A stretch of DNA of 14,049 nucleotides from UHGV virus genome UHGV-0286042; one strand, 5' to 3'. Under the pieces are notes generated by a model. That model saw only the letters and a list, made by a program, of their open reading frames with translations, was not told the DNA's origin and did no database searches. The position numbers and the translations under genes were made by a program. This document shows positions 8,744 through 9,698 of this stretch, piece after piece (position 1 is the stretch's first letter; the number at the start of each line of letters is the position of its first letter). Origin of the DNA: a virus.

Positions 8744-9094
8744 ATGGGTAAGGCCAAACTTCTAATTTGTGGTGTTCTTTTATCAGTTGTCGGCACGTCA
8801 GAGGCCTTAGCTGATACTCAGTGCGGGCCGTATCGCCTCACTGCGGGCAAAGAAGGACTAATGCTTATTAACGGGGTAAAACCTGAAACGCAAAAAATGT
8901 CTTTTCTCAAGTCTAAAGATGACTACCAAAACATGAAAGCAGAATGGATGGTTGCAACCGACCAACCCGGCCGCTGGGTTGGGCTTGAGTACATCAAGCG
9001 CAACGGCAAAGCCATTCTCAACGCACAGTGGCTGCAAGCCAGCATGAATGCGCCGCGTCAGTATGCAACATACGACTGCGTGAAGGTGAAGTAG
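8744..9094 (+). CDS. moron-encoded small secreted (periplasmic) protein, function unknown
   Basis: ORF track 8684..9094; start chosen at ATG 8744 (MGKAKLLICGVLLSVVGTSEALA|DTQCG...) giving a classical Sec signal peptide with AxA-like cleavage site; mature protein about 93 aa with Cys near both termini; lower GC than flanking tail genes; no structural-gene resemblance. Confidence 0.55.
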   Translation: MGKAKLLICGVLLSVVGTSEALADTQCGPYRLTAGKEGLMLINGVKPETQKMSFLKSKDDYQNMKAEWMVATDQPGRWVGLEYIKRNGKAILNAQWLQASMNAPRQYATYDCVKVK

Positions 9095-9100
9095 GTATAA

Positions 9101-9126
9101 AGAAAAAGCGCCGGGTTGACCGGCGC
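9101..9126 (-). terminator. rho-independent terminator (hairpin GCGCCGG-GTTGA-CCGGCGC, T-run on the minus strand)
   Basis: 7-bp perfect GC-rich stem 9108-9114 / 9120-9126, followed on the minus strand by TTTTTCT (9107-9101); lies directly 3' of minus-strand ORF 9133..9483 and 3' of the + strand secreted-protein gene. Confidence 0.6.
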
Positions 9127-9132
9127 GCCAAG

Positions 9133-9483
9133 TTATTCCTCTTTGAAGCTGATGTTCTTGCACTGCTCCATTACTTCAATCAGTTCTTTTGACGTCAGGT
9201 TTTCTACTTCGATTTTACCTTTCTCTGTGGTCATTGTTATTTTTTTGGATGATCTGGTCTGTATCCATTTTCTTGCGATAGATGCAATGGCTATACAAGC
9301 TGGTGACGACGTGGCTACGATGATAGTTATGTCGACGAGCGTGCCAACCGCATTAATTGAGTCAGCAGTTCTGATTCGCCTGCGTATTTTATAGTCACTT
9401 TCAGGTATGTTATCCTGGATTACGGAGAGCAATTCTTTGCCTATTGCTGGAGTAAATTTTATGGTTGTTTCTGATTTTGGCAT
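9133..9483 (-). CDS. moron-encoded small membrane protein (single predicted TM helix, K/E-rich C-terminus), function unknown
   Basis: 116-aa ORF on the opposite strand to the whole tail operon, in a markedly AT-rich stretch where long ORFs are unlikely by chance; hydrophobic segment LVDITIIVATSSPACIAIASIA; own terminator at 9101-9126; weak RBS. Confidence 0.5.
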   Translation of the reverse strand: MPKSETTIKFTPAIGKELLSVIQDNIPESDYKIRRRIRTADSINAVGTLVDITIIVATSSPACIAIASIARKWIQTRSSKKITMTTEKGKIEVENLTSKELIEVMEQCKNISFKEE

Positions 9484-9622
9484 AAAGGTATCCGGCCCCT
9501 ATCGTGAGAAGCTAAAAATTGCCTTGCGGCTTTTCCTTGGCAGCCTGTATCTCGCTACAAACCACGACGTTACCGTAGTTTTAAGCAAGACCTACATTCA
9601 GGGCTGCAAAGAAGATAAATAG
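9461..9622 (+). CDS. candidate small ORF (53 aa), alternatively a non-coding leader or sRNA ending at the 9663-9687 terminator
   Basis: GGAG at 9449-9452, 8 nt upstream of ATG 9461; ORF overlaps the 5' end of the divergent minus-strand gene; followed about 40 nt later by a + strand intrinsic terminator. Confidence 0.25.
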   Translation: MVVSDFGIKVSGPYREKLKIALRLFLGSLYLATNHDVTVVLSKTYIQGCKEDK

Positions 9623-9662
9623 CACGGACAAATCAGCCTTCAAACCCTGACGTTTGATCAGT

Positions 9663-9687
9663 AACCCGCCGCCGAGCGGGTTTTTTT
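9663..9687 (+). terminator. rho-independent terminator on + strand (CCCGC-CGCCGA-GCGGG followed by TTTTTTT)
   Basis: 5-6 bp GC stem 9665-9669 / 9676-9680 followed by 7 consecutive T (9681-9687); sits inside the tail operon immediately upstream of the spike gene RBS. Confidence 0.6.
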
Positions 9688-9698
9688 ATGGAGTTTTT

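Follow-up and report, generated by a model that had tools for sequence, protein, structure and literature searches.

We analyzed a minus-strand gene in the virus genome UHGV-0286042, a sequence of 14,049 nucleotides (nt), referred to below as the window, that represents the tail/baseplate region of a temperate phage. By sequence homology, the product of this gene (positions 9133-9483) belongs to the EACC1 protein family, hitherto known from two-gene bacterial systems in which EACC1 is the 5′ gene and the 3′ gene encodes a caspase-superfamily protease with variable sensor or effector domains (PMC7159879). The phage gene has no such neighbor. It overlaps, head to head, a conserved gene for a protein of 53 amino acids (aa), denoted s53, and the two form a mobile two-gene cargo, hereafter the cassette, in a variable slot of the tail/baseplate operon. 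A phage-borne EACC1 subfamily that has no caspase, is always accompanied by s53, and is found at several cargo positions in prophages appears to be new.

An EACC1 homologue in a prophage tail module

The first-pass annotation of this stretch had recognized no family for the protein and had proposed remote-homology searches, and these reached EACC1. The match to PF19953 (E = 5.3e-5, 23.6 bits) lies exactly at the curated gathering cutoff. Such a borderline score is normal for the family, because the Ktedonobacter protein KrEACC1 (K. racemifer, WP_007905045.1, sequence from the preprint supplement) itself scores only 28.2 bits on the same model. Direct comparison of the two proteins gave E = 7e-10 over 93 residues by BLASTP, and a probability of 83% (E = 9e-6) by hhalign. 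Word-indexed searches with the single protein and with clade profiles reached a narrow clade only; an exhaustive hidden Markov model (HMM) search went further, and 16 of the 25 distant family representatives taken from it match PF19953 (best E 2.4e-9). Several close relatives carry the NCBI name EACC1. A tblastn search against 50,697 sequenced phage records returned no match, the family being seen only in prophages and IMG/VR contigs, and a scan of species-representative genomes yielded one locus only.

The open reading frame (ORF) had been delimited exactly, with an ATG start and 116 aa. Against orthologues from Citrobacter, Klebsiella, and Symbiopectobacterium, the proportion of nonsynonymous differences (pN = 0.13-0.19) is far below that of synonymous differences (pS = 0.74-0.80), which indicates purifying selection and hence a real gene; all 11 distinct loci compared keep the frame open. 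Coding on the plus strand, named in the first-pass annotation as the observation that would overturn its reading, applies at 9461-9483 only; elsewhere the ORF is coding on the minus strand. A plus-strand shadow ORF at 9116-9394 was rejected as a gene, being interrupted by one to six stop codons in other loci. As had been claimed, no other minus-strand gene in the window is credible: the remaining long minus-strand ORFs fall within plus-strand tail genes and match nothing in Pfam.

The gene also ends where it was said to end, at a minus-strand terminator. The hairpin (9126..9108) is followed by the T tract TTTTTCTTT, with a folding energy of -14.9 kcal/mol, and its stem covaries between loci through compensatory changes (GCGCCGG/CCGGCGC, GTGCCGG/CCGGCAC, and GTGCCTG/CAGGCAC). 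Beyond this terminator, on the 3′ side, lies a convergent tail gene.

Protein architecture and a candidate cleavage motif

In the K. racemifer system, KrAvs12 cleaves EACC1 at a site modeled at Asp49, toxicity is confined to the C-terminal fragment, and cleaved EACC1 permeabilizes liposomes (Evans et al. 2025, bioRxiv 10.1101/2025.11.14.688446). The window protein follows the same plan: at 116 aa it is of family size (~110-125 aa), and α+β structure lies on both sides of a hydrophobic helix. Its N-terminal domain aligns with KrEACC1 residues 22-49 (AlphaFold2 [AF2] elements E5-10, H12-25, and E31-38) and, by analogy with the K. racemifer protein (10.1101/2025.11.14.688446), would be autoinhibitory. 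The residues R38-T39-A40-D41 fall in register with R46-T47-Q48-D49 of KrEACC1 in both the BLASTP and the hhalign alignment. Within the clade T39 and D41 do not vary and S42 hardly varies, and the Asp column is retained in distant relatives; this conservation suggests that cleavage still matters for activation.

The single hydrophobic segment described in the first-pass annotation was found at aa 46-72 (VGTLVDITIIVATSSPACIAIASIARK, also quoted as VDITIIVATSSPACIAIASI), but the charged part that precedes it is ~45 aa long rather than 60. The segment has a Kyte-Doolittle 19-residue mean of 1.96 and is the most conserved block of the family, with S59-I69 nearly all invariant and the string TSSPACIAIAS nearly invariant; its small-residue patch agrees with the published description of EACC1. 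The C-terminal region aligns with KrEACC1 residues 74-106 (AF2 elements E82-86, E89-93, H98-107, and E110-113). The tail, earlier called K/E-rich, is indeed charged but holds 8 K/R and 8 D/E. Judging by these alignments, the hydrophobic segment and the C-terminal region correspond to the toxic C-fragment of KrEACC1. The AF2 model (predicted local distance difference test [pLDDT] 72, predicted template-modeling score [pTM] 0.61) is a compact α+β fold with a floppy linker at the R-T-x-D motif, and it packs the hydrophobic segment inside the fold, an arrangement that a soluble latent pore-former would be expected to have.

The divergent overlapping gene s53

The island holds more than one gene; a second conserved gene, s53 (MVVSDFGIKVSGPYREKLKIALRLFLGSLYLATNHDVTVVLSKTYIQGCKEDK), was missed on the plus strand in the first-pass annotation. 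In a cross-genus alignment of the island its own frame shows pN of 0.12-0.13 vs. pS of 0.60-0.74. A Shine-Dalgarno sequence, GGAG at 9448-9451, stands 9 nt 5′ of its ATG and lies within the EACC1 coding sequence. The overlap between the two start regions, 19-41 nt in length, is kept in every clade and context, one clade with a TTG start included. The homologues of s53 share the pattern [VI]x[VF]xG[SP][YF]xxKLxxAxxL, followed by a hydrophobic stretch and then V.V; hydrophobicity is borderline for a membrane helix, and no match was found in Pfam, PHROGs, NCBIfam, or PADLOC.

We examined ~42 loci encoding phage-borne relatives: 40 in the same slot, between the phrog_3443 gene and the gpV-like spike gene, one in an immunity region (L063), and one in another tail island. 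The gene s53 is present at all of them, in three genomic contexts, and an EACC1-like gene without s53 was never seen among these loci. Pairwise identities of the two proteins are strongly correlated (Spearman ρ = 0.89, 66 pairs), and the identities of neither correlate with those of the backbone protein W (ρ about -0.07). A reverse search with s53 returned the same contigs and two more, L059 and L060, in which s53 is intact and all that remains of the EACC1-like gene is a frameshifted stretch of ~31 codons. In this part of the two contigs (2192-3162) an unrelated ORF of 241 aa abuts the remnant, having taken the place of the phrog_3443 gene and of most of the EACC1-like gene; it has a lipoprotein-type signal (MMRTIVLVPVITSLLLTAC...) and matches nothing in Pfam or PHROGs.

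Upstream of its start, the s53 frame of E. coli alleles continues without a stop as far as an ATG at 9407 (9407-9622, plus strand), which would give a 71-aa form, also seen in cluster P0048. We favor the 53-aa start at 9461 because the conserved Shine-Dalgarno sequence is found there and the extension is not conserved in other genera. RefSeq/PGAP never annotates both genes of the cassette. At loci with the window allele (L001 4135-4624) the annotation covers s53 alone (WP_016243572.1) and omits the EACC1-like ORF, so the allele of the window is left unannotated; at a locus with an 81%-identical allele (L041 1513-1863) it covers only the effector-associated constant component EACC1 and omits s53.

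Genomic context of phage-borne and canonical EACC1 genes

Published EACC1 systems occur mainly in multicellular bacteria, actinobacteria included (Kaur et al. 2020, eLife, PMC7159879). The close relatives of the window protein that have names all come from Enterobacterales (Escherichia, Citrobacter, Klebsiella, Enterobacter, Pantoea, Atlantibacter, Symbiopectobacterium, and others) and sit on prophages or viral contigs, outside the multicellular bacteria of the canonical distribution. In the exhaustive search, relatives with E < 1e-10 were all phage-borne wherever context was visible.

A Peptidase_C14 gene was found at none of the ~42 phage-borne loci, and one cassette-bearing prophage searched as a whole contains no caspase gene. 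Some of the slot loci belong to clades that share only 36-39% and 27-31% identity with the window protein, with flanking tail proteins at 60-85%. Among canonical-type relatives (P0043, P0040, P0047, and P0045), all four of those with context retrieved have a Peptidase_C14 gene, which begins between 8 nt before and 12 nt after the EACC1 stop codon, and none has an s53-like ORF. A putative metallopeptidase of the prophage was considered as a cassette-specific activator and rejected, since an identical protein occurs in a sister prophage that carries Phd/Doc in the slot.

The phage gene and the EACC1-caspase systems share some features and differ in others. The proteins are homologous and share size, architecture, the R-T-x-D junction, the small-residue hydrophobic helix, and the C-terminal hairpin and helix, and they probably share the effector chemistry of a latent pore-former. 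The caspase-like/sensor gene on the 3′ side is absent here, and a constant, divergent, overlapping partner of ~53 aa stands in its place; the carriers are temperate phages of Enterobacterales, whereas those of the canonical systems are actinobacteria, cyanobacteria, and other multicellular bacteria.

Mobility of the cassette

The two genes move together between at least three prophage positions: the slot between hub and gpV, the interval between cI and N (L063), and another opposite-strand island in a tail module. L063 (3112-6050) is a lambdoid immunity region in which s53 and the EACC1-like gene lie between the CI repressor gene and N, the EACC1-like gene directly downstream of cI and on the same strand. 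Polarity at this position is mirrored, as read-through from cI would be sense for the toxin gene. The cassette in L063 is followed by a gene whose 134-aa product (phrog_34525) has a hydrophobic helix at its N terminus, a layout that mimics cI-rexA-rexB-N of phage λ.

Proposed role and alternative explanations

We think it somewhat probable, from the homology and the genomic arrangement taken together, that the cassette is lysogen cargo in which a latent, membrane-permeabilizing EACC1 effector of the abortive-infection or addiction type is regulated by s53. By homology with K. racemifer EACC1, the full-length protein would be a harmless soluble monomer. If the N-terminal domain (aa 1-41) were removed or displaced, the C-terminal part (aa 42-116) would oligomerize and permeabilize the inner membrane, and the cell would die. 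Cleavage at R-T-x-D|S may depend on a protease that acts in trans and is contributed by the host or by an incoming phage. In the lysogen the EACC1-like protein would act as executioner and s53 as its regulator, most plausibly its antidote. Transcription of the Q-antiterminated late operon would read s53 in the sense direction and the toxin gene in antisense; because the genes overlap head to head, their mRNAs would be complementary across both ribosome-binding sites, and this complementarity combined with late transcription would shut the toxin off and allow s53 to be made during the lytic growth of the prophage itself.

Orientation against the late operon, the terminator belonging to the gene, and the rexAB-like position of a relative point to expression in the lysogen and to an effector of abortive infection or addiction. 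Lysogen expression had also been proposed in the first-pass annotation, and the cI-adjacent relative in L063 agrees with it indirectly. That s53 survives alone and the toxin gene does not, together with the predicted polarity of expression, lends weak support to s53 as antidote or gate. More tentatively, and with distinctly less confidence, we suggest that the phages have exchanged the caspase-sensor of EACC1 for a head-to-head partner of ~50 aa, so that control is either free of protease or exerted by a protease in trans. Under protease-free control, s53 as antidote or gate and mutual antisense silencing would tie the toxin to the lysogenic or lytic state. Under control in trans, the protease of an invading phage would make the cut and the effector itself would be the sensor of infection.

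Several observations weigh against a latent effector regulated by s53. The Pfam score of the protein is only at threshold, and conservation of the Asp motif could reflect folding instead of cleavage. No trans-acting protease was identified, the metallopeptidase of the prophage being a backbone gene. Canonical full-length EACC1 is nontoxic, and an antidote is then not obviously needed. The AF2 model of s53 is uninformative, a single helix of low confidence (pLDDT 63), and the asymmetry by which s53 occurs without the toxin comes from two contigs and probably one event. Neither the consensus scan nor manual inspection revealed a convincing σ70 promoter upstream of the EACC1-like ATG; the scan gave intragenic AT-driven matches only, none of them usable upstream of either start codon, so independent transcription of the minus strand is something we infer.

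Part of this evidence would also suit a pure addiction module, with a labile s53 antidote, a leaky EACC1-like toxin, post-segregational killing, and no anti-phage role. The two genes are tightly coinherited, s53 outlives loss of the toxin gene and the reverse was never seen, and a Phd/Doc toxin-antitoxin pair occupies the same slot of a sister prophage. We nevertheless regard this as unlikely, because the conserved, putatively autoinhibitory N-domain and Asp motif argue for regulated activation and not titration; many toxin-antitoxin modules, moreover, double as abortive-infection systems, so the explanation overlaps with that of a regulated lysogen effector. A decoy, by which an EACC1 mimic titrates a host caspase that activates EACC1 or poisons host EACC1 rings, would account for a cleavage motif that is kept where the protease is absent. 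It is nonetheless very improbable: conservation is strongest in the hydrophobic effector segment and not in the linker, orientation and terminators are those of lysogen cargo and not of an early or late lytic gene, and the conserved partner s53 would go unexplained. In addition, the close relatives (E < 1e-10 in the exhaustive search) with visible context are all phage-borne, and we saw no sign that canonical EACC1-caspase systems are common in enterobacterial hosts.

Three roles had been suggested for the protein in the first-pass annotation. Abortive infection fits the biochemistry of EACC1, whereas the superinfection-immunity (Imm/Sie-like) and holin-like roles were not borne out. Neither holin nor Sie/Imm families were matched in Pfam, PHROGs, NCBIfam, or PADLOC; a PADLOC match to SngB (E = 0.002, 15 bits) was dismissed as too weak, and NCBIfam gave noise only. 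Nor does the AF2 model, with its hydrophobic segment buried, resemble a constitutive integral membrane protein of either type. An accessory lysis protein that permeabilizes the membrane late in the lytic cycle of the phage would be small with one hydrophobic segment, as this protein is, and the EACC1 family does form membrane pores. Such a function is most unlikely for a gene that is antisense to the late operon and opposed by late transcription; a holin, lysozyme, and lysis protein cassette is already present elsewhere in the prophage, sister phages do without the EACC1-like gene, and a relative sits at the position of a lysogenic cI operon. Superinfection exclusion, in which entry of incoming phage DNA is blocked and the cell survives, would suit prophage cargo that runs against the late operon and encodes a hydrophobic segment. 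We give it little credence, because the protein resembles no Sie or Imm family, has homology to a family in which pore formation upon cleavage has been demonstrated, and is predicted to bury the hydrophobic segment instead of presenting a membrane anchor. Lysis, exclusion, and decoy functions are all less consistent with the orientation of the gene, its pattern of conservation, the separate lysis cassette, and the obligate presence of s53 than is a regulated effector carried by the lysogen.

Relation to known systems

In λ, RexA and RexB are prophage cargo expressed in the lysogen, and membrane depolarization aborts superinfection; rexAB lies between cI and N, and RexB is a polytopic channel activated by RexA. 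The cassette relative in L063 occupies exactly this cI-N position. There is no sequence relationship, however: the cassette would encode a latent pore-former of the cleavage type together with a 53-aa partner, and in the window it lies in a tail module, whereas rexAB belongs to the immunity region. With bacterial gasdermins and Pepco the window protein would share an inhibitory segment that holds a small pore-former inactive until proteolysis.

The island is also comparable to prophage morons and hot-spots, such as those of HK97/HK022 and of P2 and P4, in being a low-GC insert among late genes, with its own terminators and swappable cargo; the slot between the phrog_3443 gene and the gpV-like spike gene, with this cargo, is not described in the literature that we searched. 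Type I and type II toxin-antitoxin systems likewise combine a small membrane-active toxin (here predicted) with a linked partner whose 5′ region overlaps in antisense and which can persist alone. The differences are that s53, by its synonymous-site pattern, is protein-coding and not mere antisense RNA, that no toxin-antitoxin family is matched, and that the toxin would carry its own inhibitory domain.

The EACC1 family is already known, and some alleles are already labeled EACC1 in RefSeq. Phage-borne or protease-less EACC1 is mentioned neither in PMC7159879 nor in 10.1101/2025.11.14.688446, nor elsewhere in the literature searched. The characterization of EACC1 is recent, and pairing with a caspase-like protease has been treated as a defining property; the phage-borne subfamily breaks this pairing and raises the question of what activates or restrains a cleavage-type pore-former in the absence of its protease. 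Possible answers are a new kind of pore-former gating, an effector that senses foreign protease directly, or a means by which prophages silence their own suicide gene during induction. A further outcome is a cargo hot-spot that lies between the baseplate hub and the spike gene of enterobacterial prophages belonging to a widespread family.

The window and its cargo slot

All credible genes of the window but one are on the plus strand (Table 1). A closely related complete E. coli prophage encodes a CI-like repressor, CII, and the Q antiterminator, that is, lambdoid regulation, as well as a holin-lysozyme-lysis protein cassette, and its integrase gene adjoins a tRNA-Arg gene. Within the late tail operon the EACC1-like gene is an opposite-strand, moron-type cargo gene with its own terminator, much as the first-pass annotation had it. 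The AT-rich island described there was recovered as well: GC content is 0.433 for the island (9095-9662) and 0.402 for the ORF, vs. 0.534 for the rest of the window. Among 5,426 complete E. coli genomes the flanking tail genes are present in 57 and the cassette in 12. In sister E. coli prophages the slot is filled by a plus-strand Phd/YefM-Doc toxin-antitoxin pair (L002 2678-3498) or by a minus-strand DUF4236 gene of 96 aa (L003 2619-2909), which marks it as a hot-spot for cargo of the toxin/defense type. Deviant GC content, terminators on both sides, patchy presence, and alternative cargo are all features of prophage cargo.

Table 1 Coordinates of the cassette, its signals, and the surrounding genes in the window
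Feature	Position	Strand	Description
EACC1-family gene	9133..9483	-	ATG start, 116 aa + stop; predicted latent pore-forming effector
N-terminal domain, aa 1-41	9361..9483	-	Strand, helix, strand; putative counterpart of the autoinhibitory N-fragment of KrEACC1
R38-T39-A40-D41-S42	9358..9372	-	Candidate protease cleavage motif, in low-confidence linker
Hydrophobic segment, aa 46-72	9268..9348	-	Small-residue patch
C-terminal α+β region, aa 73-116	9136..9267	-	β hairpin, helix, strand
Intrinsic terminator of EACC1-like gene	9098..9126	-	7-bp GC stem, 5-nt loop, T tract
s53	9461..9622	+	Conserved 53-aa gene, partner of the phage-borne EACC1 subfamily
Overlap of divergent start regions	9461..9483	.	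23 nt; genes head-to-head
Slot	phrog_3443 stop 9094 to spike ATG 9699		Island of ~600 nt
18-nt motif	9646..9663	+	Nearly invariant, noncoding
Slot terminator	9663..9689	+	Intrinsic hairpin directly 5′ of the gpV-like spike gene (ATG 9699)
Tail genes		+	Tape measure with SLT domain, Dit-like, plug, hub, small phrog_3443 protein
Further tail genes		+	gpV-like spike with Apex motif, sheath-initiator/W-like, baseplate J

We assign the hairpin on the gpV side to the backbone and not to the cassette, because it is kept whatever the cargo: an identical hairpin stands beside the Phd/Doc cargo and an analogous one beside DUF4236, and the stem covaries across loci. The adjacent 18-nt motif (CCTGACGTTTGATCAGTA, also given as CCTGAYRTTTGATCAGTA) includes a GATC site and the palindrome TGATCA, and it is kept in 22 distinct slot cassettes, even where the proteins are only 27-39% identical. 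It was found neither with other slot cargo nor in the cassettes of L062, L063, and L065, and its absence from these three led us to reject it as an essential element of the cassette. The motif could not be read as a conserved promoter either. An Rfam scan of the island returned noise only (sroD, E = 0.16; Trp leader, E = 0.71) and left the motif unmatched.

The cassette region of the window (9095-9698) is 100% identical over 604 nt to that of E. coli strain G3/10 (NZ_CP060075.1), and the surrounding 2.5 kb is only ~94% identical; this suggests that the cassette has been exchanged between related prophages through recombination. Strain G3/10, one of the cassette-bearing genomes, is used in a probiotic preparation. 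The phrog_3443 gene at the other edge of the slot (8744-9094, plus strand) encodes an N-terminal hydrophobic segment resembling a signal peptide, with a conserved Cys (e.g., MRIIVKLTQVLLATAFIFSSSAFADGQCG in L001). Its product is far more variable than its neighbors (63-80% identity where the hub has 95-97%) and has no Pfam match, and a secreted-type product is unexpected in a baseplate module.

In the sister prophage of E. coli ECONIH5 (L061, ~11000-23700), a block with duplicated DUF2280 genes at its edges is inserted in the head module. The block holds IS5, a TOPRIM/DUF927 primase gene, two tyrosine recombinase genes, an Icd-like gene, an ash-family gene, and a TumE-family toxin-antitoxin gene, and it resembles a P4-like satellite integrated within the prophage.

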